Shown here: positions 6,632 through 41,407 of the stretch, piece after piece
Numbering within the stretch: the first letter of the stretch is position 1
How the letters are laid out: every line of letters begins with the position of its first letter
Source of the DNA: Thermodesulfobacteriota bacterium
Lineage (GTDB): Bacteria > Desulfobacterota > BSN033 > UBA1163
DNA length: 64,000 bases
Direction: 5' to 3'
Assembly: GCA_026415035.1 (NCBI GenBank)
Contig: JAOAHX010000008.1
Location: forward strand, 16,270-80,269
The notes under the pieces: model-generated
What the model saw: only the letters and a program-made list of their open reading frames with translations
Databases searched by the model: none
What the model was told of the DNA's origin: nothing
Program-made: the position numbers and the translations under genes

Positions 6632-7344
6632 AAGACCACGGTGATATTGTCCTTTCCCCCTGCGGCCTTGGCCAGATCGATCAGGCCCTCCCCTTTTTGA
6701 TCGAGGCGGAGGGAGGAGTGGAGGAGGTTCAAGATTTCATCATCCTCCACCATATCGGTCAACCCATCCGAGCAGAGCAGAAAGAGGTCGCCCGGAAAGA
6801 CCCTCCCTCTGATCAAATCCAAGGCTAAGGCCTCTTCAATGCCAACGGCCCGGAGGATGACGTGCCGCATGGGATGGTGTTTTGCCTCCTCTTTCTGGAG
6901 CAGCCCCTGATCGATCTGTGCCTGAAGATAAGAGTGGTCCCGGGTCAGCTGTCTCAATTCTCCTTTTCTCAGGAGGTAGGTCCGGCTATCGCCCACATGG
7001 CCTAAGACGTAGGTCTGATTCGAGAAGGTGATCAGTTCTGCCGTGCAACCGAGGCCCTGATGATGGGGATGGGTGGCCGAATATTTCAGGATCTTTTCAT
7101 TGGCAAGCTGGAAGGCCTTTTGGACCGACCTGGAGCTCTCCTCTCCGGGGCGTAGGATTGAGGTGGAAAAGACCTCGAGGGCGGTATCGATAAAGATTTG
7201 GCTTGCGACTTCCCCTGCGGCCGCCCCCCCCATGCCATCGGCAACCACAAAGAGATTTAATTCGGGTTTTATGAGGAAGGCGTCTTCGTTGTTGGCCCGT
7301 TTCAAGCCCGGATCGGACCTGCCGTAAGACCGTATTTCAAACAT
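6610..7344 (-). CDS. PP2C-family Ser/Thr protein phosphatase
   Basis: GRSDPGLKRANNEDAF, VADGMGGAAAGEVAS, LCSDGL and GGKDNITVVL are the canonical PPM/PP2C motifs. Confidence 0.85.
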   Translation of the reverse strand: MFEIRSYGRSDPGLKRANNEDAFLIKPELNLFVVADGMGGAAAGEVASQIFIDTALEVFSTSILRPGEESSRSVQKAFQLANEKILKYSATHPHHQGLGCTAELITFSNQTYVLGHVGDSRTYLLRKGELRQLTRDHSYLQAQIDQGLLQKEEAKHHPMRHVILRAVGIEEALALDLIRGRVFPGDLFLLCSDGLTDMVEDDEILNLLHSSLRLDQKGEGLIDLAKAAGGKDNITVVLCEMEER

Positions 7345-7428
7345 GACTCATTATACAAAAATTGTCTCTGTATTGGCAATAATTTTTCTTGACCCGGGGG
7401 ACGGGTTGGTTATAATTTATTCGGACCG

Positions 7429-8313: not shown

Positions 8314-8347
8314 TCCGGGAGCCGGCCCCTCCCCGCAGGAGGTCACG

Positions 8348-9913
8348 ATGTCCATTCCCTCACTCCCCTTCAAGGTCCTGGCCTTGGGCCCTTTTGTCCC
8401 CTCGGGAGAGGAGGTCATGTTTCGGGACCCGATTCGGGTCGATCCCGAGCAGCCCGATCAGGCCATCGAAGCCCTCCATCTCCAGCTTTCCATCGCCCTT
8501 CCCGGGAACCTCTGCGCCTGGGATCGACTTGCTTTCCCTATCCGGAGGTTAAAGGACTTCCACCCAGACTCCCTCCTCGAACACCATTCCTCTCTCAAGA
8601 ATCTCCTCGATGCGAAAAGGCTCGTTCACACCTCGAAGGCCCAGGGACTGCCTGACGAAGAGGTCTATCGCCAACTCCAAAACTGGCCAGACCTTCCATT
8701 CGACCTCCGCCCTCCTCCCTCCCGGACCCAGGAACACGCCTCAAGCCCGGTGGACCGTCTCTTAGAGATGGTCGCCATGCCCGGGGAGGAAACTGCCTCC
8801 CCGGCAGCCGCTGTGCCTCTTTCAACCCAGATCGATTCATTCCTCCAACAGGTCTTGAGGCAGATCTTCTCCGACCCCGAATTCCGAAAGGTAGAATCGA
8901 CTCACCAAGGCCTCCACTTCCTCCTGAGGCAAGCCAAATCGGAGAAGGAGGTCGCTTTCGAAATCCTCCCGGTCTCCTTTGAAACCCTTGAGGAGATCCT
9001 CGATCATCTCACCCTCTCGAAGCTCGACGACCTGCCCTCCCTGGTCATTCTCGACCTCCCCTTTGACCACTCGATGAGGAAATTGGAACTCCTTGAAAAA
9101 GTGGCCCTCTTTTCCGAAACCCTCCTCGTCCCCACGCTCTGCTGGGTGAGCCCCAAATTTCTCTTTCTCGAACGTTGGGAGGAGATGGACAAGCTCCCGT
9201 TCCTCCCCCACTATATCGATGAGCCCGCTTTTGCCAAATGGCGACGCCTGAGAGGGCTCACCTCCTCGAGATGGATCGGCCTTTTCTGCAATCGATTTTT
9301 GATCCGATATCCCTATGGCCCGGACAATCGGGTGCGATCCCTGCCCTTCACCGAATCTGATCCCCTTTGGATCTCTCCCGTATGGGCTGCCGCCAGCCTC
9401 ATCCTCCTCAGCCATCTCCAATTCGGCTGGCCCACCCGATTCACCGACTGGCAGAGCCTTCGGTTGACCGATTTAGCCACCCATCTCATAGGGAACGACC
9501 GGGGGATTGCGACCGAGGCCGATTTCGGTGACGAGAGGATCGACCAGCTGATCCGGATCGGGATCATTCCGCTGGCCTCGTTTCTGAACCGAGACATTGC
9601 CTTTATTCCCCGTGAGACAACGGCTGGAGGAACGGCCTTGAGCTGGCAACTCTTCCTCTCCAGGACCTCTCAATTCCTACTCGGGTGCCGGGATCATCTC
9701 GGATCGGATCTCTCTCCCTCCACCCTCGAAGAGAAGCTGAGGGAGGCCTTCCTTCGGTTCTATGAACGATCTGGCCGCCAGTTTCCCCAATCCCTTGAAA
9801 TCACAGCGAAGCGACCGGCCCCTGGAGAGCCTATCCAATTGAGAATTCGAATCGACCCCCCCAAACAGATTTTACCTTCAGGAGAGAGACTCGAGCTGGA
9901 ATTGCGCTGGTGA
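8348..9913 (+). CDS. 521-aa protein with a TssB(VipA/ImpB)-like N-terminal region fused to an uncharacterized ~390-aa C-terminal region
   Basis: N-terminal LPFKVLALGPF..., LHLQLSIALPGNL and PIRRLKDFHPDSLLEHHSSLKNLLDAKRL parallel the TssB family motifs LPLKLLVLGDF, RLSLSVP and FRSLKDFSPDAV...ELRKLLELR. The C-terminal region has no motif I can name. A GGAGG RBS precedes the ATG. Confidence 0.6.
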   Translation: MSIPSLPFKVLALGPFVPSGEEVMFRDPIRVDPEQPDQAIEALHLQLSIALPGNLCAWDRLAFPIRRLKDFHPDSLLEHHSSLKNLLDAKRLVHTSKAQGLPDEEVYRQLQNWPDLPFDLRPPPSRTQEHASSPVDRLLEMVAMPGEETASPAAAVPLSTQIDSFLQQVLRQIFSDPEFRKVESTHQGLHFLLRQAKSEKEVAFEILPVSFETLEEILDHLTLSKLDDLPSLVILDLPFDHSMRKLELLEKVALFSETLLVPTLCWVSPKFLFLERWEEMDKLPFLPHYIDEPAFAKWRRLRGLTSSRWIGLFCNRFLIRYPYGPDNRVRSLPFTESDPLWISPVWAAASLILLSHLQFGWPTRFTDWQSLRLTDLATHLIGNDRGIATEADFGDERIDQLIRIGIIPLASFLNRDIAFIPRETTAGGTALSWQLFLSRTSQFLLGCRDHLGSDLSPSTLEEKLREAFLRFYERSGRQFPQSLEITAKRPAPGEPIQLRIRIDPPKQILPSGERLELELRW

Positions 9914-20616: not shown

Positions 20617-21762
20617 TTGAGGATGGTGGGAGTCAGTCGAAGAGAGTTTCTCAAGAAGGCTGGCGAAGGGTTTCTGAGGCAGGCCCTCCTTCCCGGCTTT
20701 CTCATCACCCTGTTTAAAGCCTCTCGGGCTTGTGGGGAAAAAAGGGCGGAGATCCTTCGGGAGGCTCTACACTACCAGAAGCTCCCCCAGGGTCGGGTGC
20801 GATGCCATCTCTGCTTTAGGGGATGTGAAATCTTTCCCGGAAGAAGGGGATTTTGTCGAAACCGGGAGAATTGGAACGGCACGCTTTACAGCATCGCCTA
20901 TGGAAAGGCAGCGGCCCTCCAGATCGACCCCATCGAAAAAGAACCCTCTTTCCACATGATCCCTGGCACCCAGATCTTTTGCACGGCCACGGCAAGCTGC
21001 AATTTTCGCTGTAAATTCTGTCATAACTGGCACCTCTCCCAGAAGGGCGTGGAGGAGGTCCCTTATGTCACGGTGAGGCCCGAAGAGATCGTAAGAAAGG
21101 CCATCGAATATCGTTGTGAAACGGTCTCCTTTACCTACTCGGAGCCCACGGTCTTCTATGAGTACATGCTCGACATCGTGAGGATCGCAAAGGAGAAGGG
21201 GCTCAAGACCCTCTACCATACGAACGGCTCCATCCGGAAAGAGCCCCTTCTTGCCCTGCTCCCATATATGGATGCCGTCACCGTCGATCTGAAAGCCTTC
21301 ACCGAAAGGTTCTATTCGGACATCTCCTCCTCCGAACTCGAGCCCGTCCTTCAGACCCTGAAGACCATCCGATCCTACGGCCGACATCTCGAGATCGTCA
21401 ACCTCCTCATTCCCACCTTGAATGACGATCCCGCCGATATCCAGAGGATGTGTCATTGGATCAGAAACCACCTCGGCAAAGAGATCCCCCTTCACCTCAA
21501 TCGGTTCTTCCCGAATTATAAACTGACCCACCTCCCACCGACCCCCATCGAGACCCTTGAACGGGCCCATCGGATCGCTAAAGAAGCGGGACTGGAATAC
21601 GTCTACATCGGAAATGTCCCTGGCCACGAGAAGAATTCCACCTTCTGCCCGCGATGTCAGAAAAAGATTATCCACCGAACCCACTTTTCGGTGACCGCCA
21701 TCGAGATCAGAAACGGGAAGTGCCGGTTCTGCGGCTATCCCATCGCAGGGATTTGGGCTTAG
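20617..21762 (+). CDS. radical SAM enzyme, AmmeMemoRadiSam/PFL-activase-like, with Tat-like N-terminal motif
   Basis: CNFRCKFCHNW (CxxxCxxC) plus an N-terminal Cys cluster CHLCFRGCEIFPGRRGFC and a C-terminal CPRCQ...CRFCGYP. The N-terminus SRREFLKKAG, a hydrophobic stretch and ASRA resemble a twin-arginine signal. Confidence 0.75.
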   Translation: MRMVGVSRREFLKKAGEGFLRQALLPGFLITLFKASRACGEKRAEILREALHYQKLPQGRVRCHLCFRGCEIFPGRRGFCRNRENWNGTLYSIAYGKAAALQIDPIEKEPSFHMIPGTQIFCTATASCNFRCKFCHNWHLSQKGVEEVPYVTVRPEEIVRKAIEYRCETVSFTYSEPTVFYEYMLDIVRIAKEKGLKTLYHTNGSIRKEPLLALLPYMDAVTVDLKAFTERFYSDISSSELEPVLQTLKTIRSYGRHLEIVNLLIPTLNDDPADIQRMCHWIRNHLGKEIPLHLNRFFPNYKLTHLPPTPIETLERAHRIAKEAGLEYVYIGNVPGHEKNSTFCPRCQKKIIHRTHFSVTAIEIRNGKCRFCGYPIAGIWA

Positions 21763-22194: not shown

Positions 22195-23142
22195 TCAGAC
22201 GTGGTTTCGGAGTTGGAGCTCGAGGGGATGGGGGTGGAGATAGACCTGCTCTTTCAGATAGGGTTGGTCGTATTTTCGGACATAGTGTTGAATGAGGGTG
22301 ATGGGGACGATCAAGGGAAGAATCCCTCTTCGATACTGATCGATAACCTCGAGGAGTTCCTGTTTTTCGTCGGGAGAGAGGTTTTCTCTGAAATAACCCA
22401 TCATGTGCATCAAGACGTTGGCGTGTTTCTTTGGGGTGGTTTGGAGTCGAAGGGCTTCCATGAGGAGGGCCTGGTATTTCCGGTAGAGCTCTTTGATGGG
22501 AAACTCTTTGGCCTTCGCCACCAGCGTTCCAAGGACCTGGTAATGCTTGGGACTGTGGGAGAGGATGAGGAGCTTGTGCTGGGTGTGGAATTGGACGAGG
22601 GGACCGCGGCTCTCCTTACGGGCCAGCATCTCCCTCCACCGCTTCAGGGTGAAGACCCTCTCGATGAAGTTTTCCCGGAGCTTCGGATCGTGGAGCCTGC
22701 CTTCCTCTTCGACCGGTAAAAGAGGAAAATGCTCCATAAAGATCCTCGCGAACACGCCCACGCCCCTTTTTACCGGTATTCCTTTATCGTTATAGACCTT
22801 TACCCGTTCCATCCCGCTGCTGGGCGAGTCGCTTTTGAAGATGAAACCGCAGAGGTCCTCTTTTTCCAACTCGGCGACCCGTCTTCGGGCCCATCGAACC
22901 ATCTGGTCGGTGAGGTCCCTTTTCGTTTGGATCGTCAACAACCGGGGGGAGTCCGGCGGACCCACGAGATGCATCGCCTCCCTCGGGATCGGAAGGCCGC
23001 ACTCCACCTCCGGGCAGACGGGGACGTACTCCACATATCGGCCCAAGGTGTCGCGAAGAAACCGGTCCAATTTGTGTCCGCCATCATAGCGGACGTTCTG
23101 ACCGAGCAGACAGGCGCTGATCCCCAGTTTGATTTTTTCCAT
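22195..23142 (-). CDS. DUF523 + DUF1722 (YbgA-like) protein
   Basis: GISACLLGQNVRYDGG (DUF523 start), with the DUF1722-like helical C-terminal half. Confidence 0.75.
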   Translation of the reverse strand: MEKIKLGISACLLGQNVRYDGGHKLDRFLRDTLGRYVEYVPVCPEVECGLPIPREAMHLVGPPDSPRLLTIQTKRDLTDQMVRWARRRVAELEKEDLCGFIFKSDSPSSGMERVKVYNDKGIPVKRGVGVFARIFMEHFPLLPVEEEGRLHDPKLRENFIERVFTLKRWREMLARKESRGPLVQFHTQHKLLILSHSPKHYQVLGTLVAKAKEFPIKELYRKYQALLMEALRLQTTPKKHANVLMHMMGYFRENLSPDEKQELLEVIDQYRRGILPLIVPITLIQHYVRKYDQPYLKEQVYLHPHPLELQLRNHV

Positions 23143-24238
23143 CGAACCTCCCCGGCTCCCTCCTCCCCCCCTGTTTTAACGCCTCCTGGTAGATCTGAAC
23201 CAGACCCCTTGCTTCCTCTTCGGGGGTCGGCATTTTGGCTGCCTGTTCTCTCCCGTTGTCGCCGAGGGCCCGACGAAGTTCCTCCTCATCGATGAGACGA
23301 AGGGCCTGCTGGACGAAGTGTTCTGGCGATTCGGGATCGAAGAGAAGTCCCGCGGGAGCCCCTTCTCCCCCTCCACGAACCGGCCATCGGTTCCCCGGAA
23401 TATCGGATGCCAGGATGGGCTTTCCCGCTGCTTTGGCCTCAAGGAGGGCGTTGGAGAGGCCTTCGGAGGAAGAGGCATTGAGAACGATATCCGCTCCGGT
23501 GTAGGCCGAACGCATCGCCTGAAAGGGGATGAGGAAGAGCCATCGAGCAAAGAAAAAGAGGAGGTTCACCTCGGCCTTGAATCTTTCTCCATAGGCCTTA
23601 TCGATGACCGGGCCGCTGAAGACCGCCCGGATCTTCGGCCTCAAACGATGGACCTTTTCGAGAAGTAGCAGGGCTTTCAGATTTCCCTTCACCGGACGGA
23701 TTCCCGCGGGATAAAAGAAGAGGATATCCTCCGGGCCGCAGTGGGCCACCTCCCGAAGGTCGAAGGCTTCGTCTCCCATCCAGCAGAAGGATTTGGGAAG
23801 GAAGGCGACCTTCCCCCGAACGTCCGGATAGGAATGCCCTATCTGTTGGATCATCTCTTCGCTCTGGGCGATAATCGCCTTTGCTCCCTCGAAGATCCTC
23901 GTGATGATGGGCCGACGATCCCTCTGGTAGGTATCGAGAGAAAGGTCGGTCCCCCCCGGGGAGACCACCAAGGTCCACGGAGGGCCGGCCAACGCCTGAG
24001 GTAGGGCCAGAAATAAGGATCCCGTCCGGTAGGCATGGTGGAGGTGAACGATCTCGGGTTTGAAGTCGATTAGCCTCCGTTCCAACTCGATAGGGCTGAG
24101 ACCCTCGGTTGCCACTACCAAGACCTCTTGGCCTTCTCGGGAGAGAAAACGTCTCCACCTCTCGGTGGTAGAGGCGTTTCCGGTCGGGGTGGGATAGGCG
24201 GTGGGTGTGAGAATTAGAATTCGGAGAGAGGGACTCAA
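23084..24238 (-). CDS. glycosyltransferase family 4 (group 1 GT)
   Basis: GT-B fold features. The C-terminal half (GIRPVKGN...LFFARW...SSSEGLSNALLEAKAAGKPILASD) has the E-x7-E-like motif region typical of GT4. Confidence 0.75.
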   Translation of the reverse strand: MSPSLRILILTPTAYPTPTGNASTTERWRRFLSREGQEVLVVATEGLSPIELERRLIDFKPEIVHLHHAYRTGSLFLALPQALAGPPWTLVVSPGGTDLSLDTYQRDRRPIITRIFEGAKAIIAQSEEMIQQIGHSYPDVRGKVAFLPKSFCWMGDEAFDLREVAHCGPEDILFFYPAGIRPVKGNLKALLLLEKVHRLRPKIRAVFSGPVIDKAYGERFKAEVNLLFFFARWLFLIPFQAMRSAYTGADIVLNASSSEGLSNALLEAKAAGKPILASDIPGNRWPVRGGGEGAPAGLLFDPESPEHFVQQALRLIDEEELRRALGDNGREQAAKMPTPEEEARGLVQIYQEALKQGGRREPGRFDGKNQTGDQRLSARSERPL

Positions 24239-25104
24239 CTCAGGATCTCCGGAAAGGGGGTCAAGAAGATCTCCTTTCTTTTTAGGATAAGACGCAAATG
24301 GCCATCAAGCAATATCTTAAGTTCTTCTTCCCTGTCCTGGGTCGAAAACCCCGAGAAAGGGGTCTGCGGAGGGTCCTTTATCCTCCGTCCGGGATGGACC
24401 ATCCACTCGGTCAGACCATCGGGGAGAGTCTCGAGAAAGGATTCCACCCTCTGAAGGGAAGGGCGGTTTTTTAGATAGAGACCGTAAAAATGATCCGGCA
24501 CATGGAGTCCCGAGGCCAAGATGAAGGGCCGAGCGGCCTGGCCCAACTGGCTGAAGAATCTGGCCTCTTCCAGGGCAGAGGGAGATAAAGGGTCCTCCCC
24601 AAAATCCGAGATAGGTTCCTCTGGGATTCTGACCCAAGGGATCTCGTGCTTCAGGGCAGCCCTGATCATGGCCTTTAAAACGGCCGGAAATACATGAATA
24701 TGCTGATGGCCGTCGATGTGAGAAAGGGAAAGCCCCGATGTTTTGAGGAGGGTGATCTGGGCATCGATTTCACGACCGATCTCATCCTCAAGGAGGGGGT
24801 CGCCTTGGGTCATCAAAAGGCGTTGCGAGGCTGGTTTCCCCAGAAACGTCCCCTCGGGGCAGAGAAGCGGTGACGGCTTGGTCGATACGGGCCTTCCTTC
24901 TGAAAGATTGAGGTGAATTCCCCAAGAGATACGCCCAAAGGCGCTGGAACGAATCCTTTCAATGGCATCCCGAAGCCCTGGGCCATTCGGAAGGATGCTC
25001 ACGCTGGTCACCATGCCCGCCTGGATGGCTTCAAAGATTCCCGCGTTTCTCCCCTCATCGGCTCCGAGGTCATCCGCGTTGATGATGAGCCTTTTGGCGG
25101 TCAT
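24235..25104 (-). CDS. YdjC/ChbG/HpnK-family carbohydrate deacetylase
   Basis: LIINADDLG and HIDGHQHIH motifs. Start placed at MTAKRLI (25104), overlapping the upstream stop. Confidence 0.7.
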   Translation of the reverse strand: MTAKRLIINADDLGADEGRNAGIFEAIQAGMVTSVSILPNGPGLRDAIERIRSSAFGRISWGIHLNLSEGRPVSTKPSPLLCPEGTFLGKPASQRLLMTQGDPLLEDEIGREIDAQITLLKTSGLSLSHIDGHQHIHVFPAVLKAMIRAALKHEIPWVRIPEEPISDFGEDPLSPSALEEARFFSQLGQAARPFILASGLHVPDHFYGLYLKNRPSLQRVESFLETLPDGLTEWMVHPGRRIKDPPQTPFSGFSTQDREEELKILLDGHLRLILKRKEIFLTPFPEILS

Positions 25105-26810
25105 CGGAGACCTCTGGCCCGAATAAAGAGATTGCGAAAGAACCATCTGCCATTCGAATCCTGTTCGAATTGAGATAATCCGGAGGATCTCAACTGAAGA
25201 AGGTGATTGAAGAGGCCGGCCTCCATGGCCTCGTACTCCTCAGGGGTGAAGAATCTCTCGGTTTCATAAACGAGCCTGACCTCTTTAAACCGTTCCTCCA
25301 ATCGTTTCCATAATCCCTCGGGGTCTGCCAGAGAGATGGCAAGCATCCAGAGCCTTCCCCGCTCAGGATGGAGAAACCTTTGGACCTTTTCAAGGATCGC
25401 AAAAAGATGGTCTGTTCCGTGCAGCCCCCCGTAGCGCGGGCCGAAGGGCCGGGGCCCAGGAGTCTGGGGAGGTGTGGCGATGACCACGTCGAACCGATCG
25501 AGATTCTCCTTCAGCGGCTCAAACCAAGACCCTCCTTTGATCTGGATCCTGGCAGCCACCCCGTTGAGCTTGGCGTTGAGGGCCGTTGCCTCGAGGGCCT
25601 TGGGGTCAATATCGACCGCCACCACCTCTTTCGCACCGAGTTTGGCCGAAACGATGGAGAAAAGCCCGCTTCCGCACCCAAGGTCAAGGACCTTCTCATC
25701 CCTCCGAATGTCAAGGAACTTGGCCAGATCGATGCTCGAAGGGGGTGGGATATGGACGCCTTCAGGAAGATCGAGGAGGATGCGGCCAAAAGGGAGATCG
25801 AGGGTCATCTGACTCCTTTCTGGGCCACCCATATGGCCATACCGGTTCAGGCCGGAGGAGAGGAGGCGTCCGATAAGGGTCGGATAATCCAAACCCGACC
25901 ATCTGGCAGATCGGGCAAAGGCCTCGCCGATCTCGAGGCTCGGCGTGACATTGGCCTCGAGAAGATAAGGGGTCCCATCCTCCGTGAGCCGTAAATCAAA
26001 GCGAGCGTAGTCCTTCAAACCGAGGGCGTCGAAGGCTTTGCGTGCAAATGCCTCGATCCTCTCTCGAAGATTAAGCGGGAGGTCGGCAGGCCTCATGGAT
26101 TCTTCGGGTGGATCCACCTTTTTAAAGGTTTCGCTGAGCACCTCATTCCCGGTATGTTCCAGTCGCCATTCGAGGATCGTCAAGACCTCTAACCCCTTCG
26201 GACCAGCAATCACCGGTACGGCCAGTTCCCGCCCCTTAAGATAGGTTTCGACCAGAACAGGTTGGCCATACCGTTGGAGCAGGTCGGCTGCATGAAGGTG
26301 AAGCTCCTTTTCATTTCGGGCGAGCCTGAGGCCACGACTCATATGCTCGAAGGCGGGTTTGAGCACCAGAGGGGGTTCAAGCCACTGAGGAAGTTCGAAT
26401 TCTTTTGTGCGGACAAGGATCCCTGGAGGCGTCGGGATCCCCGCGGTGGAAAGCCGCGCTTTCGAAGCCATCTTGTCATCGGCAAGGAAACAGGCTTTGG
26501 CATCCGAGCCCACGATTCGGGCTCCTCGGGACTCGAGCAGGAGCCGGACGAGGGCCCGGAAGAATCCCCTGCCTTTGAACGTATCCGTATGATCGATGAT
26601 GAAGTCACATTGGCAGGCCAGATCGTCTGCCTGAAATTCGATCTCCTCGGAGTTGACGATGAGGGCGTCATGACCGAGAGCGGCAAGACCCTGGGCAATC
26701 GACTCCGCACAGCGGCAGACGGATTCGAGGGTTCGGACAATTCCTATGCGCATTCGGTCATCAGAGATCTTGAGAAGCCTCACCGAGGCCGATCCTCCTC
26801 GGTCTGTCAA
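25101..26810 (-). CDS. fusion protein: ATP-grasp ligase (D-Ala-D-Ala-ligase-like) N-terminal half, SAM-dependent methyltransferase (HemK/PrmC-like small MTase) C-terminal half
   Basis: ATP-grasp: LVLKPAFEHMSRG, VLVETYLKGRELAVPVIAG, DYARFDLRLTEDGTPYLLEANVTPSL. MTase: VLDLGCGSGLFSIV (motif I), VVAVDIDPKA, VIATPPQTPG (NPPY-like). The exact start codon is uncertain. Confidence 0.65.
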   Translation of the reverse strand: MTDRGGSASVRLLKISDDRMRIGIVRTLESVCRCAESIAQGLAALGHDALIVNSEEIEFQADDLACQCDFIIDHTDTFKGRGFFRALVRLLLESRGARIVGSDAKACFLADDKMASKARLSTAGIPTPPGILVRTKEFELPQWLEPPLVLKPAFEHMSRGLRLARNEKELHLHAADLLQRYGQPVLVETYLKGRELAVPVIAGPKGLEVLTILEWRLEHTGNEVLSETFKKVDPPEESMRPADLPLNLRERIEAFARKAFDALGLKDYARFDLRLTEDGTPYLLEANVTPSLEIGEAFARSARWSGLDYPTLIGRLLSSGLNRYGHMGGPERSQMTLDLPFGRILLDLPEGVHIPPPSSIDLAKFLDIRRDEKVLDLGCGSGLFSIVSAKLGAKEVVAVDIDPKALEATALNAKLNGVAARIQIKGGSWFEPLKENLDRFDVVIATPPQTPGPRPFGPRYGGLHGTDHLFAILEKVQRFLHPERGRLWMLAISLADPEGLWKRLEERFKEVRLVYETERFFTPEEYEAMEAGLFNHLLQLRSSGLSQFEQDSNGRWFFRNLFIRARGLR

Positions 26811-27080
26811 CAGCCCGGCTCTCCAGGATGGCCGCAGCAGGACTGAAAGCGACGGATCTTAATCCAGTTGTTCCTCAACAAAAGCCATAGCTTCTTAGGC
26901 CATGGCAGATCCCCTCGGAGATTGGTGAGAAAAGATCGGGGATTTGGTTTATCCATTGTATTCCATTTTAGCCAAATGGAGCCCCGATTTTCAAAAGAAA
27001 TTTCTCCAAAGAGGGCCCATTCCAAAGACTGCTTTCCTCCTCTCTTGACAACCTCCTCGCCTTTTATTATTATTCAAGCT

Positions 27081-28331
27081 ATGAATAATGATCATTCAAA
27101 ATATGAATTATTTTACAGAAAAAGATGGATTGGCCCCCTGATCCAATCAGGGATCAAAACATTTCCTGTGGTCATTGTCTCTGGAGCGAGACAGGTCGGG
27201 AAGAGCACCTTCCTGCAGAACGAATTCCCAGATTTTAAATACCTCAGCCTGGATGATTTCTCGGCGCTCCACCAGGCCCAAAGAGATCCATCTTCCCTGT
27301 GGATCGACACGGATCGGGTCATCCTCGATGAGGCCCAAAAAGCTCCGGAGCTTTTTAGCGCTGTGAAACTTGCGGTAGACCGTAGCAGAAGGAAGATCCG
27401 CTTTTTAATCTCCGGGTCCTCGAATCTGTTATTGATGAAAGGGATCAGCGAGACCCTTGCAGGAAGAGCCATCTACTTTGAGATGCATCCGATGACCTAT
27501 GGCGAAATGTATGGAAAAGGCGAAAGGCCTCAAAATTTCCTTCACCTTCTCCATACCCATTTCAAGATCAAAGAACAAGAGTTGAAGGAAGTAGATCCCG
27601 TTCCCCTGATGCTCAAAGGTTTCATGCCTCCCCTGCTGCATTTGTCAGAGGGGAAAGACGTCCTACTCTGGTGGGAGGGTTATGTTAAGACATATCTTGA
27701 AAGGGACTTGAGAGAACTTTCGCAGATCGAGTCCTTGGTCGATTTTAGAAGAGTCCTGGAATCCCTCGCCCTCAGGACAGGGAATTTACTTAATCAGACA
27801 GAGGTCAGTCGAGATACCGGAGTCAGTCAACCTACGGTTTATCGATATATGAAGCTTCTCGAAATCTCAAACCTCGTCAAAAGGATTCCAGCCTACTTTC
27901 CTGCCCGAACGAAAAGGATTACAAAATCTCCTAAATGTTTCTTCGTGGACCCAGGCCTGAGCATTTATCTTTCAGGATATTACGATGAAGAGTCTTTGAG
28001 GAAGGCGAGGGAGATCGGACATTACTTCGAGTCCTTTATCTTTTTACATTTACAGGTCCTGAGCGAATGGTTGGTCCCCAAGGCCTCTCTTTTTTACTGG
28101 AGAACCCCATCGGGAAAAGAAGTGGACTTCGTCCTCGAGCAGGGCAAAAACCTCTTTGCCTTTGAGGTTAAGATGACCCAGAAACCTACTTTCCATGATG
28201 TGCGGAATTTAATCGCCTTTGTGGAAGAGCATCCGAGGACCGTAAGAGGGGTTTTGATCCACGCCGGATCATCGATTCAATATTTTCATTCAAAGGTGAT
28301 CGCTATCCCCTGGTGGTGGATTGGATTGTAA
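27081..28331 (+). CDS. AAA+ ATPase with DUF4143 C-terminal domain
   Basis: Walker A GARQVGKST, Walker B ILDEAQ, and a C-terminal DUF4143-like region. Local GC is visibly lower than in the flanks. Start placed at MNNDHSKY (27081). Confidence 0.8.
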   Translation: MNNDHSKYELFYRKRWIGPLIQSGIKTFPVVIVSGARQVGKSTFLQNEFPDFKYLSLDDFSALHQAQRDPSSLWIDTDRVILDEAQKAPELFSAVKLAVDRSRRKIRFLISGSSNLLLMKGISETLAGRAIYFEMHPMTYGEMYGKGERPQNFLHLLHTHFKIKEQELKEVDPVPLMLKGFMPPLLHLSEGKDVLLWWEGYVKTYLERDLRELSQIESLVDFRRVLESLALRTGNLLNQTEVSRDTGVSQPTVYRYMKLLEISNLVKRIPAYFPARTKRITKSPKCFFVDPGLSIYLSGYYDEESLRKAREIGHYFESFIFLHLQVLSEWLVPKASLFYWRTPSGKEVDFVLEQGKNLFAFEVKMTQKPTFHDVRNLIAFVEEHPRTVRGVLIHAGSSIQYFHSKVIAIPWWWIGL

Positions 28332-28346: not shown

Positions 28347-29465
28347 TCAAAAGATTCCACCTAAGCTTCCGGCGTAGCCGGTCAGTTCCACATAGCCCTC
28401 GCAGGTGATCGCTCTGCCTCCCGCGGTTCCCCTTCCGGCGACCGCGCCCTCCCAGTAAACGATCCCGGTGGACCCTTGGGTCAGGAGTTCCTGGCCGGAG
28501 ACGAGGGGGGTCAGTTCTACCTCTATCTTTTCCGAGGCGATCTTCAATCTCCATCGGCTCGGATATCTGCCACCGCTCTGAGGGCTTTTCCAGTAATCGA
28601 GGACTTGCAGGTTGATGTCGTTGAGTTGGAGATGAATCGCCTCCCCCGAGGCCTTGACCAGGGTCCCCGAGGAGGAGGCTTCGATCGTCCCGTCCTTCCT
28701 CCTGAGAAAATAGACCATCAGCTCCCGGCCGTCCGAAAGGTGGAGGCTGAACCAGTCCCAACCCACCTGATCGGGGGCGAGTTGATTCGAACCGAATTCA
28801 TGGTCAAACCAGCTCGTCCCTTTTACAGGAATGGAGGAATTGGAAAGAGGCGTTTTGATGAGTCCTTCGGTTGCGAGATTCGTATAGGAGAAGTAGTAGG
28901 AGGCCTGGCCTTCCTTCGGCCCTTTTTGGCTGAGTCCGTTCCTTCCATGGAAGACGAGGGGCTTGCGGGGCACCAGGCGGAGGGAGAGCCCCATCTCCTG
29001 ATGCCGGGCCGATAGGTGGATCCGGTTCCCCTCCATCTTGGCGAGCCAGTTGAGGAGCCAGACGTCCATCCTGTCTCGAGCGGCCCCTGCAAGCCCAGGA
29101 CCCTCCCGCGAAACCCTTTCTGCATACCAGAAACGATTGGAGGAGACATCGGTCAGGGCAAAATGGGCCAGGTAGATGTCGCGAATCGACCAGGGGTGAT
29201 CCGGATCCTTTGCCTTGGGGAGCGCCCCCTGCCGGAAGAAGGTGAGCTGGTATCCAAAGCGGTTGTTCGAAGCATCTCTCAGATGGCCCGTGAAGTACCA
29301 CCACTCGGTCCTGAATTCAGGGTGAGAACCATGATCTCTTGGGAAGGACCAATCCCAAGGACCGATGGCCTGACGCCAATCCCGGGCGGAGGCCAGAGAG
29401 AGGAACCCCATCAAAAGCAGAGGAGGGAGGAGCTTCCAAAGGGATTTATGAAGGCGACGATTCAT
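28347..29465 (-). CDS. AttH/CrtC-like (lipocalin-like) secreted protein
   Basis: Signal peptide. HPEFRTEWWYFTGHL is the hallmark of the AttH / hydroxyneurosporene synthase-like family. Confidence 0.65.
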   Translation of the reverse strand: MNRRLHKSLWKLLPPLLLMGFLSLASARDWRQAIGPWDWSFPRDHGSHPEFRTEWWYFTGHLRDASNNRFGYQLTFFRQGALPKAKDPDHPWSIRDIYLAHFALTDVSSNRFWYAERVSREGPGLAGAARDRMDVWLLNWLAKMEGNRIHLSARHQEMGLSLRLVPRKPLVFHGRNGLSQKGPKEGQASYYFSYTNLATEGLIKTPLSNSSIPVKGTSWFDHEFGSNQLAPDQVGWDWFSLHLSDGRELMVYFLRRKDGTIEASSSGTLVKASGEAIHLQLNDINLQVLDYWKSPQSGGRYPSRWRLKIASEKIEVELTPLVSGQELLTQGSTGIVYWEGAVAGRGTAGGRAITCEGYVELTGYAGSLGGIF

Positions 29466-29510
29466 CTTCTTTTTGCGTAATCCTGAGGCCCCCGATCCTG
29501 CTTAGATGAA

Positions 29511-32000
29511 CTACTCCTCCCGGATTTGGATTTGAGGATAGGTCCGGTAGACCCTCCAGATGGGATAAACGGCGGCTCCGATGCTGGCCAGAATGGCGAT
29601 GAGGCCCGTCCATAGATAAGGTTCGGGGGTAGGGTGATAGAAGATGGTCCAGTTGAAACTTCGGAGGTTGATCACCTTGATCAGGAGAACGGCAAGCCCG
29701 GTTCCGACGACGAGGCTCAGGATGAAACTGATCATCCCCATCCCCAGCCCCTCCATAAGCGTCATCTTCGCCACCTGACCCGTCGAAAATCCCAGGGCAC
29801 GGTAGATGCCGAACTCCCGGCTCCGCTCGATGAAGAGCGTCAGCAAAGCACCGGCGATGCCGAAAAAGGCGACGACGATGGCGATGACCCTCATGGAACG
29901 GGTGATGGCAAACGTCGTGTCAAACACCTCGAGGATCTCTCGATGGAGTTGAGCGCCCGTCAGCACCGGAAGCCCCCTCGCCTCCGCCCTCTTCTTCACC
30001 TCTTGGATCAGTTCGGATCTGCGCGGGTTGTCGGGGTCGATGAAGATCCCGATGTTGTTGAGGGTTCGGTCACCAAAAACCTTGAGATAGGTGGACCGGT
30101 CCATCATGACCAAGCCGTGTTCCGTGGTGTAATCGTAAAAGATGGCCCCGACCCTAAAGGCCGTAGGGCCTTGTCGGCCATCCAGCGTGATCGTATCACC
30201 CGATTTCACTCCAAAGCGCCTCGCAAAACTTTCGGAGACAATGACGCCACCCTGTTTGACAGGTTCCCAATTCTCATCCCCCCCTTTGACCCAGCCAAAC
30301 CGGGCATACTTCTGAAGGACCTTCGCATCCACCGCACTGATATGGATGGGGGTCTCTTGGTATAAGGTCTGGACATTGCGATAGGGATGGACCCCACCCA
30401 ATCCCTCCAACCCCTTCAGCTCCTCGAAGAAGTCCTCCGGGACCTCGGCTTCGAGGATCTTTCCGATGTAAAGATCCCCCCGGATCTGGGTGCCCATCCA
30501 CCAGATCAGGGACTGTCTGAAACTTCCGATCATCGTCCCCAGGCCGATCGACATGGAGAGCGAGATCATGAAGGCCGCGATGGCCACACCCGTCCTTCCG
30601 AGATTCTGCCGGATCGTCCCCGCCGCCACCTTCCCCGGAAGCCCTCCCCAAAGGACGAGGAGTTTTTTGAGAAAGGGGTGAAGGCCGAGGAGCAAGACGC
30701 CGGTGAGAAGGCTCGCCCCGAGGACGAAGCCGAAGACGCCGGCGAAACCGACATAGACATCGCCATCAGGGATGAGGAAGAGCATCAGGCTGACGAGAAA
30801 GACCGCAAGACCCGCGAGGGCCAATTGTATGGCCCGCTGGCCGCTCTTTCGGCCGGGCGCCCTTCCGCTCAAGGCTTGAACCGGATCGGTACGGATCAGT
30901 TCCACGAGGGGGACGATCCCTCCCACCAGGCCGGCGCCGCATCCGAGCAGGATGCCGACCACCGGGATCCAGAGCGACCAGACGACCGGTTCCGGTCTTA
31001 AGAAGAAGTAGAGATTGCTGATGGTATCGCCGATCATGCCGGTCAAAAATCGGGTCAAGAGATACCCCACCCAACCTCCGAGGGCTCCGCCGATGGCGCC
31101 GAGGATGAGGATCTCGGAAAGAAAGGCGAGAAAAATCTCGACCCTTGTTGCCCCGAGGCTCCTCAAGATGCCCGCATCGCGCCTTCGGCTGATGACCGTG
31201 AACATGGCGGTATTGTAGATGAGAAAGACGCCGACGAAGAGGGCCAACAGGGAGAGGGCCTCGAGATTGAGACGAAAGGCCCGAAGCATCCCGGAGTAGG
31301 TCTCGCTCCGCTGACGGGACGACTGGATGAGAAACCCTTTTCCCCAGCGAGACCGAAAACCGGGTTCGTCTGAAAGGATGAGGTCGACCCGGTCGACCCA
31401 GCCCTGGAGTTGATAGAGTTTCTGAGCATGACCGATATCCATGACCATCAGAGGCTCTGCCGAAGGATTGGAAAACACCCCCTTGACCCGAAGCCTCCCT
31501 TTCGTCGTCTCCAGGAGGGTATCGGGTGGGATTTCGATCTCTTCGATCAAATCCTGGTCCACGAGGACCGAGCGCTCGTCGGTCAAAAAGGAGAGGAGAT
31601 GAGAAAGGACGTCTGCCTTTTGATCCAGCCATTCCACACGGGCAAGTTCGGGGCGAAGCGTCCGGTCCAAAAACGGATCGATCCCCAGAAGCCGGACCTG
31701 GCCACCCTGGAGGAGGCTCAGCTGACGGTCGATGACCGGAGAGAACCACTCCACCGCAGGATCGCGGCTCAGTTGGATCAACAGGTGCTCCTCCATGGGA
31801 CCGACCGGTCTCTGGATCGAGTGGGTGGCTTGGCCTCTCAAAAATTCGATGGCCTTATGGAAACTCCGGAGGGCCGTCTGGGCGGAGAGGGTCATGCCCA
31901 CCACCGCGGCCACGCCGCAGGCCACGCCCATCAGTTGGAGGAGGCTGAGGCTCCGTCTGCGGGGAAGATAGCGGAGAAAGGATTTGGCGACGATCCTCAA
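29511..32000 (-). CDS. ABC transporter permease with duplicated FtsX-like domains (MacB/LolE-type)
   Basis: 829 aa, with two 4-TM FtsX-like modules each preceded by a large periplasmic domain. Overlaps the ATPase gene by 4 nt. Confidence 0.8.
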   Translation of the reverse strand: MRIVAKSFLRYLPRRRSLSLLQLMGVACGVAAVVGMTLSAQTALRSFHKAIEFLRGQATHSIQRPVGPMEEHLLIQLSRDPAVEWFSPVIDRQLSLLQGGQVRLLGIDPFLDRTLRPELARVEWLDQKADVLSHLLSFLTDERSVLVDQDLIEEIEIPPDTLLETTKGRLRVKGVFSNPSAEPLMVMDIGHAQKLYQLQGWVDRVDLILSDEPGFRSRWGKGFLIQSSRQRSETYSGMLRAFRLNLEALSLLALFVGVFLIYNTAMFTVISRRRDAGILRSLGATRVEIFLAFLSEILILGAIGGALGGWVGYLLTRFLTGMIGDTISNLYFFLRPEPVVWSLWIPVVGILLGCGAGLVGGIVPLVELIRTDPVQALSGRAPGRKSGQRAIQLALAGLAVFLVSLMLFLIPDGDVYVGFAGVFGFVLGASLLTGVLLLGLHPFLKKLLVLWGGLPGKVAAGTIRQNLGRTGVAIAAFMISLSMSIGLGTMIGSFRQSLIWWMGTQIRGDLYIGKILEAEVPEDFFEELKGLEGLGGVHPYRNVQTLYQETPIHISAVDAKVLQKYARFGWVKGGDENWEPVKQGGVIVSESFARRFGVKSGDTITLDGRQGPTAFRVGAIFYDYTTEHGLVMMDRSTYLKVFGDRTLNNIGIFIDPDNPRRSELIQEVKKRAEARGLPVLTGAQLHREILEVFDTTFAITRSMRVIAIVVAFFGIAGALLTLFIERSREFGIYRALGFSTGQVAKMTLMEGLGMGMISFILSLVVGTGLAVLLIKVINLRSFNWTIFYHPTPEPYLWTGLIAILASIGAAVYPIWRVYRTYPQIQIREE

Positions 32001-32686
32001 TGGGGCGATTCCTCACAGAAGGTCTCTTCGGTGATCACGCCATCGACCATTCTCAGGATGCGGGTCGCATAACGGCAGGTCAATGGGGAATGGGTGGCCA
32101 TGATCAGGGTGGTTCCTGATTCGCGACAGCTTCGGGTCAACAACTCGAGGATCTGGTTTCCTGTGGCCGTATCGAGATTTCCCGTGGGTTCATCGGCCAA
32201 GACGATGGTAGGGTTTTTTACGATGGCCCTGGCGATGGCCACCCGTTGCTGTTCCCCTCCGGAGAGCTCATTGGGATAGCGGCGTTCTTTGCCCTTAAGC
32301 CCCACGTCTCTCAAGGCCTGGAAGGCCAGCTCCGGCTCCGGCCGATTGGCCAGTTCGAGGGAGAGGTAGACGTTTTCGAAGGCCGTGAGGGTCGGAAGAA
32401 GGTTGAAGAACTGGAAGATGAATCCGATCTTCGCCCGTCTCAACAGCGTTCGGCCCCTCTCCCCAAGTTCCTCTAAATCTCGACCCTCCACCTCGATCCG
32501 TCCCCGTGTCGGACGATCCAGTCCCGCGATGAGGTTGAAGAGGGTCGTCTTTCCGGAGCCGCTCTTTCCGAAGAGGGCGACGACCTCTCCTGCCTCGATC
32601 TCGAGGCTCGTCCCACAGAGGGCGGGGGTGGCCGCCCCTACCTCCCCATAGTGTTTCCAAAGATCGTGGATTCGGATGAGGGCCAT
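31997..32686 (-). CDS. ABC transporter ATP-binding protein (LolD/MacB-NBD-like)
   Basis: Walker A GKSGSGKTT, signature LSGGEQQRVAIARA, Walker B LADEPTGNLD. Start placed at MALIRIHDL. Confidence 0.85.
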   Translation of the reverse strand: MALIRIHDLWKHYGEVGAATPALCGTSLEIEAGEVVALFGKSGSGKTTLFNLIAGLDRPTRGRIEVEGRDLEELGERGRTLLRRAKIGFIFQFFNLLPTLTAFENVYLSLELANRPEPELAFQALRDVGLKGKERRYPNELSGGEQQRVAIARAIVKNPTIVLADEPTGNLDTATGNQILELLTRSCRESGTTLIMATHSPLTCRYATRILRMVDGVITEETFCEESPH

Positions 32687-32696
32687 GGGGGGAAGG

Positions 32697-32900
32697 CTAA
32701 AGTTTTTCTGGGAAACAGAGGTTCTCCCCGCGAGCTGCGGCACGTCCGCAGTGTTGACAGAAATATTTGGCGTCCCGGATGAGCTCCTTGTATTCCTCCT
32801 GGGTCATGCTCTTCCGGAGCTCGCAGAGATGCCGTTCGTGTCCCTCATGGGGCACATTGAGAGCTGCCTCGGATAGGAAGACCTTTCCTGTGGTGGCCAT
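32697..32900 (-). CDS. small Cys-containing (zinc-ribbon-like) protein
   Basis: 67 aa with a CQHCGR pair plus two further Cys. A GGAGGGTG RBS sits 8 nt upstream of the ATG. It is the first gene of the ABC/AttH operon. Confidence 0.4.
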   Translation of the reverse strand: MATTGKVFLSEAALNVPHEGHERHLCELRKSMTQEEYKELIRDAKYFCQHCGRAAARGENLCFPEKL

Positions 32901-38571: not shown

Positions 38572-39534
38572 ATGAAACGCCTCATCGTCATCGGAATCCT
38601 TTTAATGCTTATTTGTGGAGTTTCCACCGCTTGGGCCCAGAAGGCGGTCCGCCTCTCCATCGCCACGGGCGGGACCGGAGGGGTTTACTATCCCCTTGGC
38701 GGCGGCATGGCCAGCCTCATCTCGAAATACATCCCCTATGCGGAGGCGACCGCAGAGGTGACCACGGCCTCCGTCGACAACGTCCGACTGATAGGCGCTG
38801 CCAAGGCCGATCTTGCCTTCACCATGGCCGATACCGCCTGGGATGCCTTCCAGGGAAAGGGGGTTTTCAAGGAGAAGATTCCCCTTCGGGCCCTCTTTGC
38901 CTTCTATCCCAACAACATGCACATCGTCACGGTGGAGGGCAGGGGGATTGAAAAGGTGGCCGACCTGAAGGGAAAGAGGGTCTCCACCGGCGCGCCTGGA
39001 AGCGGGACCGAAGTGATGGCCCTCAGGGTCCTCGAGGCCTTCGGCATCGATCCGGACAAGGACCTCAAGAGGGACAAATTGGGGGCCTCCGAGTCCGCAG
39101 GCGCTCTGAAGGACCGCAAGATCGATGCCTACTTCTGGGTGGGAGGCGTTCCGACCGCCTCTGTGACCGATGTGGCTGCCACGCCCGGGATGAAGATCAA
39201 ATTGATCGCCCATGACGAAGCCCTCCCCAAGATGAGAGAGAAGTACGGACCCCTCTACGTCAAGGGAACGATCCCGGCCAAGGCCTATCCGGGACAGGAC
39301 GTGGACGTGCCCATCGCCGTGGTCTGGAATCTTGTTGTTTGCCATGAGAATATGAAGGGCGACGTGGCCTATGACATCGTGAGGACGATGTTCGAGCGGA
39401 AATCGGAGCTTGTGGCCGTCCACAAGGATGCGGCTTGGCTTGCCCTTGAACCCCAGGCCGCTGGCGGCTCTCCGATCCCCTTCCATCCGGGGGCGGTTCG
39501 CTTCTACACCGAGAAAGGCCTGAAGATCCGATAA
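38572..39534 (+). CDS. TAXI-family TRAP transporter solute receptor
   Basis: Signal peptide, then LSIATGGTGGVYYPLGGGMA (TAXI hallmark). Confidence 0.85.
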   Translation: MKRLIVIGILLMLICGVSTAWAQKAVRLSIATGGTGGVYYPLGGGMASLISKYIPYAEATAEVTTASVDNVRLIGAAKADLAFTMADTAWDAFQGKGVFKEKIPLRALFAFYPNNMHIVTVEGRGIEKVADLKGKRVSTGAPGSGTEVMALRVLEAFGIDPDKDLKRDKLGASESAGALKDRKIDAYFWVGGVPTASVTDVAATPGMKIKLIAHDEALPKMREKYGPLYVKGTIPAKAYPGQDVDVPIAVVWNLVVCHENMKGDVAYDIVRTMFERKSELVAVHKDAAWLALEPQAAGGSPIPFHPGAVRFYTEKGLKIR

Positions 39535-40050
39535 TTGAAATTCAGACGCTGGCCCCTCCTGTCCTTGATCGGGTTCCTCATCGTGGCAGGAGGGGTCTTT
39601 GTTTCGACAGAGGTCACGGTCCTCCAACTTGAAAACCTGGACCGGCAGAAGATCCTGCGGATCAAGGTAAGCCCGGCCGAATCCCTCTCCCTTTCTTACC
39701 TCCATTCCATCTATCGCGAGCCCGTCGTGGAGGAATTTCGCCTGAGGGAGGGCGAATTCCTCCTTACAGGGGTGATTACGAGAAGCCCGGGCGTCATGGA
39801 GTATTACGGATTCGAGGAGGTGAGAGACCGCCATCCGGTCGAGAGGAGATGGGCCTTCCTCGATCTGAAGAGGACGCCGGGAGGAGAACAGGTCCTGATC
39901 GTCAAGGGAAGGCAAATCGAACTTAGGGATCTCGGAGAGGAAGGAGATCGAATCCGATTGAGGGTTCTCTCCCTGAGGCTCGGCCCTTATCTTTTGGGAT
40001 CAATCGACCAGCTCCTTTCTCCTCCTTTCCTGGGCCAGGAAAGGGAGTAG
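39535..40050 (+). CDS. DUF1850 domain protein (TAXI-TRAP associated)
   Basis: N-terminal TM, with SYLHSIYREPVVEEFRL typical of DUF1850. Start codon abuts the receptor stop. Confidence 0.7.
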   Translation: MKFRRWPLLSLIGFLIVAGGVFVSTEVTVLQLENLDRQKILRIKVSPAESLSLSYLHSIYREPVVEEFRLREGEFLLTGVITRSPGVMEYYGFEEVRDRHPVERRWAFLDLKRTPGGEQVLIVKGRQIELRDLGEEGDRIRLRVLSLRLGPYLLGSIDQLLSPPFLGQERE

Positions 40051-41289: not shown

Positions 41290-41407
41290 GGACCAATTAT
41301 TCTTGATTTACCCATTGCTGTCAAACGCCTTGGGTCCCTCTTTCTCCTTGACATGAAAAAGCCTTTTTTATTATTTTGGAACTGCTTTTCAGGGAGAGAG
41401 GTGGGAA

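Follow-up and report, generated by a model that had tools for sequence, protein, structure and literature searches.

We analysed a 64,000-nucleotide stretch of DNA from a Thermodesulfobacteriota bacterium (contig JAOAHX010000008.1 of GenBank assembly GCA_026415035.1, positions 16,270 to 80,269), hereafter the window, and within it a group of minus-strand genes that begins with a fusion of an ATP-grasp ligase to a methyltransferase and continues with a YdjC-family deacetylase, a family 4 glycosyltransferase (GT4) and a DUF523/DUF1722 protein. The original prediction, made from the letters of the window, placed four open reading frames (ORFs) between positions 22195 and 26810. All four are present at these coordinates, and the domain calls of all of them were upheld by Pfam and NCBIfam. 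None of the four proteins carries a transmembrane segment. The features of the locus are the following:

25101..26753, minus strand: ATP-grasp::methyltransferase fusion gene, first gene of the unit, 550 amino acids (aa) from its most likely start, Met20 of a 569-aa ORF
25836..26753, minus strand: ligase domain of the fusion, with the ATP-grasp fold of D-Ala-D-Ala ligase (Ddl), ORF residues 20-325
25104..25793, minus strand: HemK/PrmA-like class I S-adenosylmethionine (SAM) methyltransferase domain of the fusion, ORF residues 340-569
24235..25104, minus strand: YdjC-family carbohydrate de-N-acetylase, 289 aa from its most likely start, Met15 (Pfam YdjC, 5.8e-59)
23084..24238, minus strand: GT4 retaining glycosyltransferase, 384 aa, TTG start (Pfam)
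22195..23142, minus strand: DUF523 (TudS-like, PF04463) + DUF1722 protein (Pfam)
26754..27080, unstranded: upstream divergent intergenic region, assuming that the neighbouring AAA_14 gene starts at an internal Met near 27081

An alignment with 22 homologs (23 sequences) places the start of the fusion protein at Met20 (MRIGIVRT), so that the gene most likely begins at position 26753 rather than at 26810. Similarly, the YdjC gene most likely begins at Met15 (position 25104), because homologous YdjC proteins begin 'M..K..I(I/V)NADD'. The overlaps of 4-59 nt first claimed for the genes were therefore revised in part. The 4-nt overlap of the YdjC and GT4 genes stood, but the 46-nt overlap of the fusion and YdjC genes is really one of 4 nt, and the 59-nt overlap of the GT4 and DUF523 genes is due to the last ~27 aa of the GT4, a non-conserved tail with a predicted local distance difference test (pLDDT) score <50; in relatives, tblastn revealed a gap of 70-110 nt between these two genes instead. 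As read from the DNA, the fusion/YdjC junction is cgATGAcc, where the YdjC start lies over the fusion stop, and the YdjC/GT4 junction is agTTGAgt, where the TTG start of the GT4 lies over the YdjC stop. Both 4-nt overlaps are of the kind typical of translational coupling.

The conservation of this arrangement was analyzed in homologous loci. A scan of one genome per GTDB species detected relatives of the ATP-grasp::methyltransferase fusion in 135 stretches (at least 135 species-level genomes); we retained 78 loci, 62 of which have at least 2 kb of DNA downstream of the fusion gene and were considered informative. The window proteins were compared with the 78 loci by tblastn, and the 1,062 ORFs in these loci were clustered de novo. 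In 58 of the 62 informative loci the fusion gene is directly followed by YdjC and then GT4, all on one strand, and the pairwise identity of the fusion proteins across loci has a median of 55% and a minimum of 38%. Clustering returned exactly three widely shared clusters; the next best was present in 8 loci, and a fourth conserved gene was rejected because no other cluster exceeds that number. The same trio was observed in the independent gene calls of the Joint Genome Institute (JGI) on two long metagenome contigs, with junction overlaps of 1-4 nt and unrelated flanks. In the loci compared, the gene upstream of the fusion is usually divergent. The linkage of the three genes is far beyond chance and, since the trio is kept while its context varies, the conserved entity is a self-contained three-gene cassette.

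The four-gene operon of the original prediction thus stands for three of its genes, whose linkage is kept elsewhere, and falls for the fourth. The DUF523/DUF1722 gene adjoins the trio in just 5 of the 78 loci, from two clades, and was rejected as a pathway member; although in the window it points the same way as the trio and is probably transcribed with it, we regard it as a passenger or at most an occasional accessory gene. The PF04463 (DUF523) family is now named '2-thiouracil desulfurase'. A myo-inositol-1-phosphate synthase gene does exist 18 kb from the operon (44398-45510), as had been noted in support of a mycothiol-like pathway, but its proposed link to the cassette was rejected: tblastn placed neither this gene nor its neighbours beside the trio in any of the 78 loci. 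Between it and the operon lie genes for a pyruvate:ferredoxin oxidoreductase, a ZIP transporter, a radical SAM protein and other unrelated genes. In five Syntrophorhabdaceae-like loci (L027, L058, L062, L069 and L077) a 192-aa protein with no Pfam family, 'MPL(A/T)FDSLSHGEVAFGFFNIETDMLLLED...', is encoded directly after the GT4 on the same strand; its gene is possibly an accessory of the cassette restricted to that lineage. In a Syntrophus-like clade (L023, L026, L071 and L074), the gene 19 nt upstream of the ATP-grasp, on the same strand, codes for another class I methyltransferase (Methyltransf_23/12 type, ~270 aa), unrelated to the first.

All carriers among the 78 loci are metagenome-assembled genomes (MAGs), assigned to Syntrophales/Syntrophaceae, Syntrophorhabdus, Desulfarculaceae and unclassified Thermodesulfobacteriota, with several labelled Acidobacteriota. 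No cultured isolate with the cassette was found, whether in these loci, among the cluster members or on the long JGI contigs. The fusion protein has 491 homologs, and full-length versions of 550-560 aa at 55-76% identity are abundant in metagenomes. The window protein itself is GenBank MCX8117591.1, from a Desulfobacterota MAG, where it was deposited as '50S ribosomal protein L11 methyltransferase'. A literature search for the cassette or for the ATP-grasp::methyltransferase fusion returned no paper. The fusion had not been recognised as a characterized architecture, and this was borne out, as it has no full-length match in the PDB, no NCBIfam model above cutoff and no match to a characterized enzyme.

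The promoter of the cassette presumably lies within 26754..27080. Scans for promoters and terminators around the cassette gave counts equal to those in shuffled sequence. An Rfam scan for riboswitches and regulatory RNAs gave no match at E<=1 except one chance long non-coding RNA. In the upstream regions of 62 loci, consensus scans for a shared Rex, Fur/PerR, FNR, OxyR-like or sigma-54 site were empty, and a de novo 8-mer search returned GC-rich noise only, with no common motif.

The ligase domain of the fusion matches Pfam Dala_Dala_lig_C at residues 122-317 of the ORF (E 1e-24), and its top 50 Foldseek matches are all Ddl or VanA structures, with template modelling (TM) scores of 0.7-0.85 on the target. 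An alignment to E. coli DdlB (1iov) shows that the residues for ATP, Mg and the acyl phosphate are retained: K97, K144, K215, R255, D257, E270 and N272 of DdlB correspond to K113, K151, K230, R270, D272, E285 and N287 of the fusion. The same alignment revealed that the D-Ala1 triad Glu15-Ser150-Tyr216 is lost (Glu15 has no equivalent, S150 is replaced by an invariant M157 and the Tyr216 position is variable), and that E296/A297 take the place of S281/L282, which bind the D-Ala2 carboxylate. The loop that bears Glu15 in Ddl is shorter in the fusion and carries an invariant S30-x-C32-x-C34, and Ddl His63 corresponds to His74, within an inserted DHTDT motif (73-77). The S-x-C-x-C, DHTDT and EHMSRG (155-160) hallmarks are kept in standalone relatives at 35-46% identity. 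The Ddl models of NCBIfam all scored under half of their cutoff (NF002378, 107 bits vs 243; TIGR01205, 96 vs 246). Because both D-Ala sites are lost and the scores are below cutoff, a D-Ala-D-Ala ligase identity was rejected. The domain shares with Ddl and VanA the fold and the full ATP/Mg/acyl-phosphate catalytic set, but it has the S-x-C-x-C and DHTDT motifs, is fused to a methyltransferase and has no cell-wall gene context. We take it to be a predicted active carboxylate-amine (or carboxylate-thiol) ligase with new substrates.

The methyltransferase domain matches Pfam PrmA (7.7e-19) and MTS (1e-13) over residues 362-520. It has an LGCGSG SAM-binding motif I and a motif IV T446-P-P-Q449 followed by YGGxDG; the TPPQ sequence, already read as an NPPY-like motif from the window, aligns to N197PPY of T. 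maritima HemK. The closest solved relatives are, in order, T. maritima HemK (E 2e-11), PH1915, the aminoglycoside 3''-N-methyltransferase GenN (E 2e-9), PrmA, protein arginine methyltransferases and an apramycin N-methyltransferase. The nearest solved relatives all methylate nitrogen, and the domain is predicted to belong to the amino-(N-)methyltransferase class. NmbA was not among its PDB matches at E<=1e-3. With HemK/PrmC and PrmA the domain shares the class I fold, the GxGxG SAM motif, a 'PxPxS/T' segment and a PP-containing motif IV followed by GGxDG, but it belongs to neither family. The PrmA model TIGR00406 gave 63.6 bits vs 183, in a match limited to the SAM-binding core (residues 369-445), and the L11-binding N-domain of PrmA is replaced in the fusion by the ATP-grasp domain (the N-terminal 320 residues). 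The HemK/PrmC model TIGR03534 gave 51 bits vs 199, TPPQ stands for NPPY, and there is no substrate-recognition N-domain.

A PADLOC search matched the methyltransferase domain to mad2, the N6-adenine methylase of the MADS anti-phage system (95.6 bits); the YdjC, GT4 and DUF523 proteins gave no PADLOC match. In the MADS model, mad6, mad7 and mad8 are mandatory and mad2 is accessory and prone to false positives (10.1101/2023.03.30.534895). The three mandatory genes are absent beside the domain, and a role in MADS defence was rejected, the match being at the domain level and to mad2 only.

The YdjC protein is a member of its superfamily (PF04794, 200.5 bits vs 29.7), with the NADD, HLNL and DGHQH motifs intact, but it falls below the equivalog cutoffs for HpnK (TIGR03473, 133.5 bits vs 232.6) and ChbG (NF002559, 115 vs 227). 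It has the metal and catalytic motifs of these enzymes, and HpnK likewise follows an N-acetylglucosamine (GlcNAc) transferase; however, the cassette has no hopanoid or chitobiose gene context. Neither a radical SAM protein nor a GT2 was found as a conserved neighbour in the 78 loci, where HpnJ and HpnI had been sought.

The GT4 protein has the Glycos_transf_1 and Glyco_transf_4 domains of Pfam, an EX7E motif (E259-E267) and the GT-B fold, and its AlphaFold2 model is confident (pLDDT 89.5; predicted template modelling score, pTM, 0.85). The closest solved structures detected by Foldseek were SenB (E 3e-20, TM 0.84), MshA, GlgM, BshA, sucrose-phosphate synthase and TreT, and the lipid/polyprenol enzymes PimB' and PglA ranked 35th or lower. 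A UDP-sugar donor and a small soluble anionic acceptor are therefore favoured, and a UDP-N-acetylhexosamine (UDP-HexNAc) donor would fit the adjacent deacetylase. The protein is neither BshA (TIGR03999, 30 bits vs 273.7), with which it has the fold in common (3mbo and 5d00, TM 0.72-0.76), nor MshA (TIGR03449, 40 bits vs 462.5). The best sequence model was NF038229, 'GPMC system family 4 glycosyltransferase', which matched the full length with 286 bits in the window and 280-302 bits in relatives. Because its cutoff is 400 bits, the GT4 is placed in a sister group of that family. No GPMC regulator or other GPMC component was found near the cassette, and searches returned neither papers on the GPMC system nor named relatives. 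The relationship to that system is one at the sequence level only. SenB and NF038229 are thus the best structural match and the best sequence model of the GT4, but the SenB pathway lacks the deacetylase, ligase and methyltransferase partners of the cassette.

Other arrangements of the four activities were also detected. An exhaustive HMMER search of 1.84 billion cluster representatives returned just 92 proteins at E<=1e-30, which include full-length fusions, standalone ATP-grasp proteins (~300 aa), standalone methyltransferases (~230 aa) and two methyltransferase::YdjC fusions (P0278 and P0293). In loci L071 and L074, the ATP-grasp and the methyltransferase are adjacent separate genes, followed by YdjC and GT4. 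An ATP-grasp gene followed by a methyltransferase::YdjC fusion was seen as well, and in L086 the order is ATP-grasp, YdjC and GT4, with a separate PrmA-type methyltransferase nearby. In a Planctomycetota MAG of 75% GC (L079, 5471-11849), a methyltransferase::YdjC fusion is followed by a GT4 and a DUF748/YhdP-like protein; L080 and L081 are of the same type, and in these two the gene for the DUF748/YhdP-like protein (1,208-1,258 aa in this group) overlaps the GT4 gene by 4 nt. Divergently upstream of the Planctomycetota variant are genes for a TPR sigma-54 activator and an extracytoplasmic function-like sigma factor. Two independent fusions (ligase-methyltransferase and methyltransferase-deacetylase) and the repeated co-occurrence in at least five arrangements constitute strong comparative evidence that the four activities would serve one pathway.

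We propose that the cassette makes a cytoplasmic N-acylated, N-methylated hexosaminide by means of three translationally coupled genes with four activities, a reading to which, judged from sequence comparisons, we give an even chance. In step 1, the GT4 would put an N-acetylhexosamine, most likely GlcNAc from UDP-GlcNAc, on a small soluble and probably anionic acceptor. In step 2, the YdjC protein, as a metal-dependent de-N-acetylase, would strip the acetyl group and expose the C2 amine. In step 3, the ATP-grasp domain would convert a carboxylic acid (probably an amino acid) into its acyl phosphate and couple it to the C2 amine through an amide bond. In step 4, the fused HemK-like domain would place a methyl group on the product, at the nitrogen of the sugar or at the amine of the added residue. 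In this scheme we infer which sugar is donated, which molecules serve as acceptor and acyl donor, which atom is methylated and whether step 3 precedes step 4. A logic of GlcNAc transfer, de-N-acetylation and ATP-dependent ligation was the core of the original prediction, and it is still the best reading, backed by the five or more arrangements, by the resemblance of the GT4 to SenB, MshA and BshA and by the N-directed class of the methyltransferase. The view that this logic is built here from other families also held, with a YdjC rather than an LmbE deacetylase and a Ddl-like ATP-grasp ligase.

The pathway had been compared with those of bacillithiol and mycothiol. Since the methyltransferase is of the N-directed class, N-methyl-bacillithiol would be an even closer parallel. 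In that pathway, BshA is the GT4, BshB the deacetylase, BshC the ligase and NmbA the N-methyltransferase (PMC6282198; PMC12719100), and the four activities of the cassette map on them one-to-one. However, only the GT4 is homologous, and distantly so: the cassette has YdjC instead of an LmbE-type deacetylase, a Ddl-fold ATP-grasp instead of BshC, and a HemK-like methyltransferase, fused to the ligase, instead of NmbA. Mycothiol synthesis (MshA-D) is similar in the GT4 transfer of GlcNAc to a small anionic acceptor, the deacetylation and the ATP-dependent acylation of glucosamine; it differs in its LmbE-type deacetylase and CysRS-like ligase, which the cassette lacks, and in a last step that is acetylation rather than methylation.

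Several observations weigh against the proposed pathway. The Planctomycetota variant has no ATP-grasp on the DNA examined (22 kb), and on one contig the ATP-grasp is followed by YdjC with no methyltransferase between them; these ligase-free and methyltransferase-free variants imply that neither step is obligatory everywhere, and the methyltransferase may act directly on the sugar amine. In a high-GC clade (L049, L051 and L052), the fusion has no adjoining YdjC or GT4. The AlphaFold2 model of the fusion has a mean pLDDT of 84 and a pTM of 0.57, which makes the packing and arrangement of its domains unreliable. E293, E296 and W304, considered as a sugar-binding nucleophile site, were downgraded, as E296 and W304 are conserved only within the fusion clade. 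No clue to the substrates came from a riboswitch, a shared regulator site or a conserved neighbour.

An unlikely sub-case of the proposed pathway is that its product is a new low-molecular-weight thiol, N-methyl-cysteinyl-glucosaminide, which would act as a redox buffer in strictly anaerobic syntrophs. The cassette would then make a hitherto undescribed major thiol or redox cofactor of syntrophic Desulfobacterota, this glucosaminide or a similar compound, by a pathway convergent on the bacillithiol/mycothiol design through non-homologous replacements of BshB/MshB, BshC/MshC and NmbA, namely YdjC, a Ddl-derived and possibly metal-dependent (CxC/His) cysteine ligase and the cassette methyltransferase; this wider claim is just as unlikely. 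The one-to-one match with the N-methyl-bacillithiol pathway would fit such a product, and SenB, MshA and BshA, whose structures are nearest to the GT4, each catalyse the first step of a thiol or selenol cofactor pathway. In addition, the invariant S-x-C-x-C, His74 and His156 sit where Ddl binds its first substrate, and by analogy with CysRS and MshC they could form a thiolate-recognising metal site. In four loci the gene immediately before the fusion, in the same orientation, codes for a CoADR-type disulfide reductase, but this adjacency is confined to one clade, with close relatives that lack it, and is therefore weak support for a thiol. Moreover, nothing identifies cysteine as the donor, some variants have no ligase, and the methyltransferase is unrelated to NmbA.

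The reductase genes themselves code for CoADR/Nox-type pyridine-nucleotide-disulfide oxidoreductases (L016 4336-5757, L017 6545-7939, L022 950-2371 and L030 ~6545-7938) and are separated from the fusion by 60-75 nt. Each has an in-frame TGA exactly at the redox-active Cys of the family ('GPHTSYSA*SIPYY'), and the enzyme is probably, as judged from this codon, a selenoprotein in which TGA stands for selenocysteine.

It is improbable that the cassette tailors a membrane lipid head group, in which case GlcNAc would be placed on diacylglycerol, phosphatidylinositol or a hopanoid-type acceptor and then deacetylated, acylated and methylated. YdjC would act here as HpnK does on bacteriohopanetetrol-GlcNAc, and HpnK is indeed its best NCBIfam match, but with a score under the cutoff. 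The giant DUF748/YhdP-like protein of the Planctomycetota variant, whose gene overlaps that of the GT4 by 4 nt, belongs to a lipid-transport-associated family, and an AttH/CrtC-like lipocalin with a MacB-type ABC exporter is encoded just upstream in the window and in two relatives; the exporter synteny, however, is limited to 2 of the 78 loci, in which no hopanoid or lipid genes are conserved beside the trio. All proteins of the cassette are soluble, and the GT4 resembles small-molecule GT4s more than it does PimB' or PglA.

In a quite improbable third alternative, the cassette would prepare a nucleotide sugar for a surface glycan: YdjC, the ligase and the methyltransferase would turn UDP-HexNAc into a donor of N-(methyl-aminoacyl)-hexosamine, which the GT4, as the last enzyme, would transfer onto a glycan or carrier. 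N-acylated amino sugars are common in O-antigens and capsules, ATP-grasp amide ligases take part in capsule tailoring, and the gene order (ligase-methyltransferase, YdjC, GT4) has the transferase last. Against it, the 78 loci show no conserved neighbour that codes for a flippase, a polymerase, a polyprenol-phosphate transferase or another glycan-assembly function, the structural neighbours of the GT4 are small-acceptor enzymes and, to our knowledge, characterized YdjC enzymes act on glycosides and not on nucleotide sugars.

We hold it equally improbable that the steps have another order or target, so that the methyltransferase would methylate the sugar amine freed by YdjC, to give an N-methyl- or trimethyl-glucosaminide, and the ligase would act on another nucleophile, e.g., to build or extend the aglycone. 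The methyltransferase::YdjC fusions and the ligase-free operon of such a fusion with a GT4 argue for it, as does the presence of GenN, an amino-sugar N-methyltransferase, among the closest solved relatives; PrmA relatives trimethylate amines. In most lineages, however, the methyltransferase is fused to the ligase and not to YdjC, and a Planctomycetota ligase may be encoded elsewhere in the genome, outside the 22 kb examined.

That the deposited annotations are right (PrmA and/or a peptidoglycan Ddl), as the NCBI and JGI labels of the fusion have it, or that the cassette serves methylation-based phage defence, as the mad2 match and the neighbouring defence candidate PDC-S01 might suggest, is scarcely credible and was rejected by the membership tests: PrmA and Ddl scores are far below their cutoffs, the ATP-grasp domain stands where PrmA has its L11-binding N-domain, neither D-Ala site is retained and there is no mur/ftsQ context, while for defence mad6-8 are absent, mad2 is a known source of false positives and the YdjC and GT4 proteins have no PADLOC match.

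The gene that faces the cassette in the window (26868-28331, plus strand) codes for an AAA_14 + DUF4143 ATPase that matches the PADLOC single-gene defence candidate PDC-S01 (E 6e-107); its start is probably an internal Met near 27081. A near-consensus sigma-70 promoter, TTGACA-17-TATTAT (27045-27073), ends a few bases before this Met, and at so short a distance a leaderless or very short-leader mRNA would result. Beyond it, at 28347-32743 on the minus strand, lie genes for an AttH/CrtC-like double-lipocalin protein and a MacB/FtsX-type ABC permease and ATPase, resembling an AttEFGH exporter. L015 and L054 have this block immediately before the fusion; in the window the PDC-S01-like gene alone intervenes, and it may have been inserted between the exporter block and the cassette.

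On the other side of the cassette, an AmmeMemoRadiSam-system radical SAM enzyme is encoded at 20617-21762 on the plus strand (TIGR04337, 349 bits, above cutoff). Its ORF begins with a twin-arginine-like sequence ('VSRREFLKKAG...'), which, provided that the TTG start is correct, would be an unusual feature in a radical SAM enzyme. At 7429-9913 (plus strand), an FHA-domain protein is followed by a 521-aa protein that joins VipA-like and VipB/EvpB-like sheath domains and is a fused contractile-sheath protein of a type VI secretion-like or related injection system. A block on the minus strand (38602-44031) lies just downstream of the inositol-phosphate synthase gene and contains a nickel-pincer-cofactor-dependent isomerase, 'group 22' (40000-41289, 539 bits, above cutoff), together with three neighbours that have no Pfam or NCBIfam match (38602-39915, 437 aa; 41321-43363, 680 aa; 43387-44031, 214 aa). 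Divergent from the synthase gene, at 45760-47774 on the plus strand, are genes for a B12-binding radical SAM protein, with weak P-methyltransferase and lipid 'ladder' matches, and a subclass-B3-like hydrolase of the metallo-beta-lactamase fold.

Even if the product of the cassette is an ordinary one, these results correct a widespread annotation error ("L11 methyltransferase", "D-Ala-D-Ala ligase") and define a new subfamily of Ddl-derived ligases, marked by the S-x-C-x-C motif, that no longer make D-Ala-D-Ala. Among the key partners in methanogenic degradation are Syntrophales, Syntrophorhabdus and related Desulfobacterota, whose small-molecule cofactors and protectants are little known. The three-gene unit is compact and well suited to synthesis and expression. 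If the cassette does make a new glycoside cofactor, it would provide a marker gene for that metabolite in metagenomes, and would represent a third independent enzymatic route to the 'aminoacyl-glucosaminide' design.

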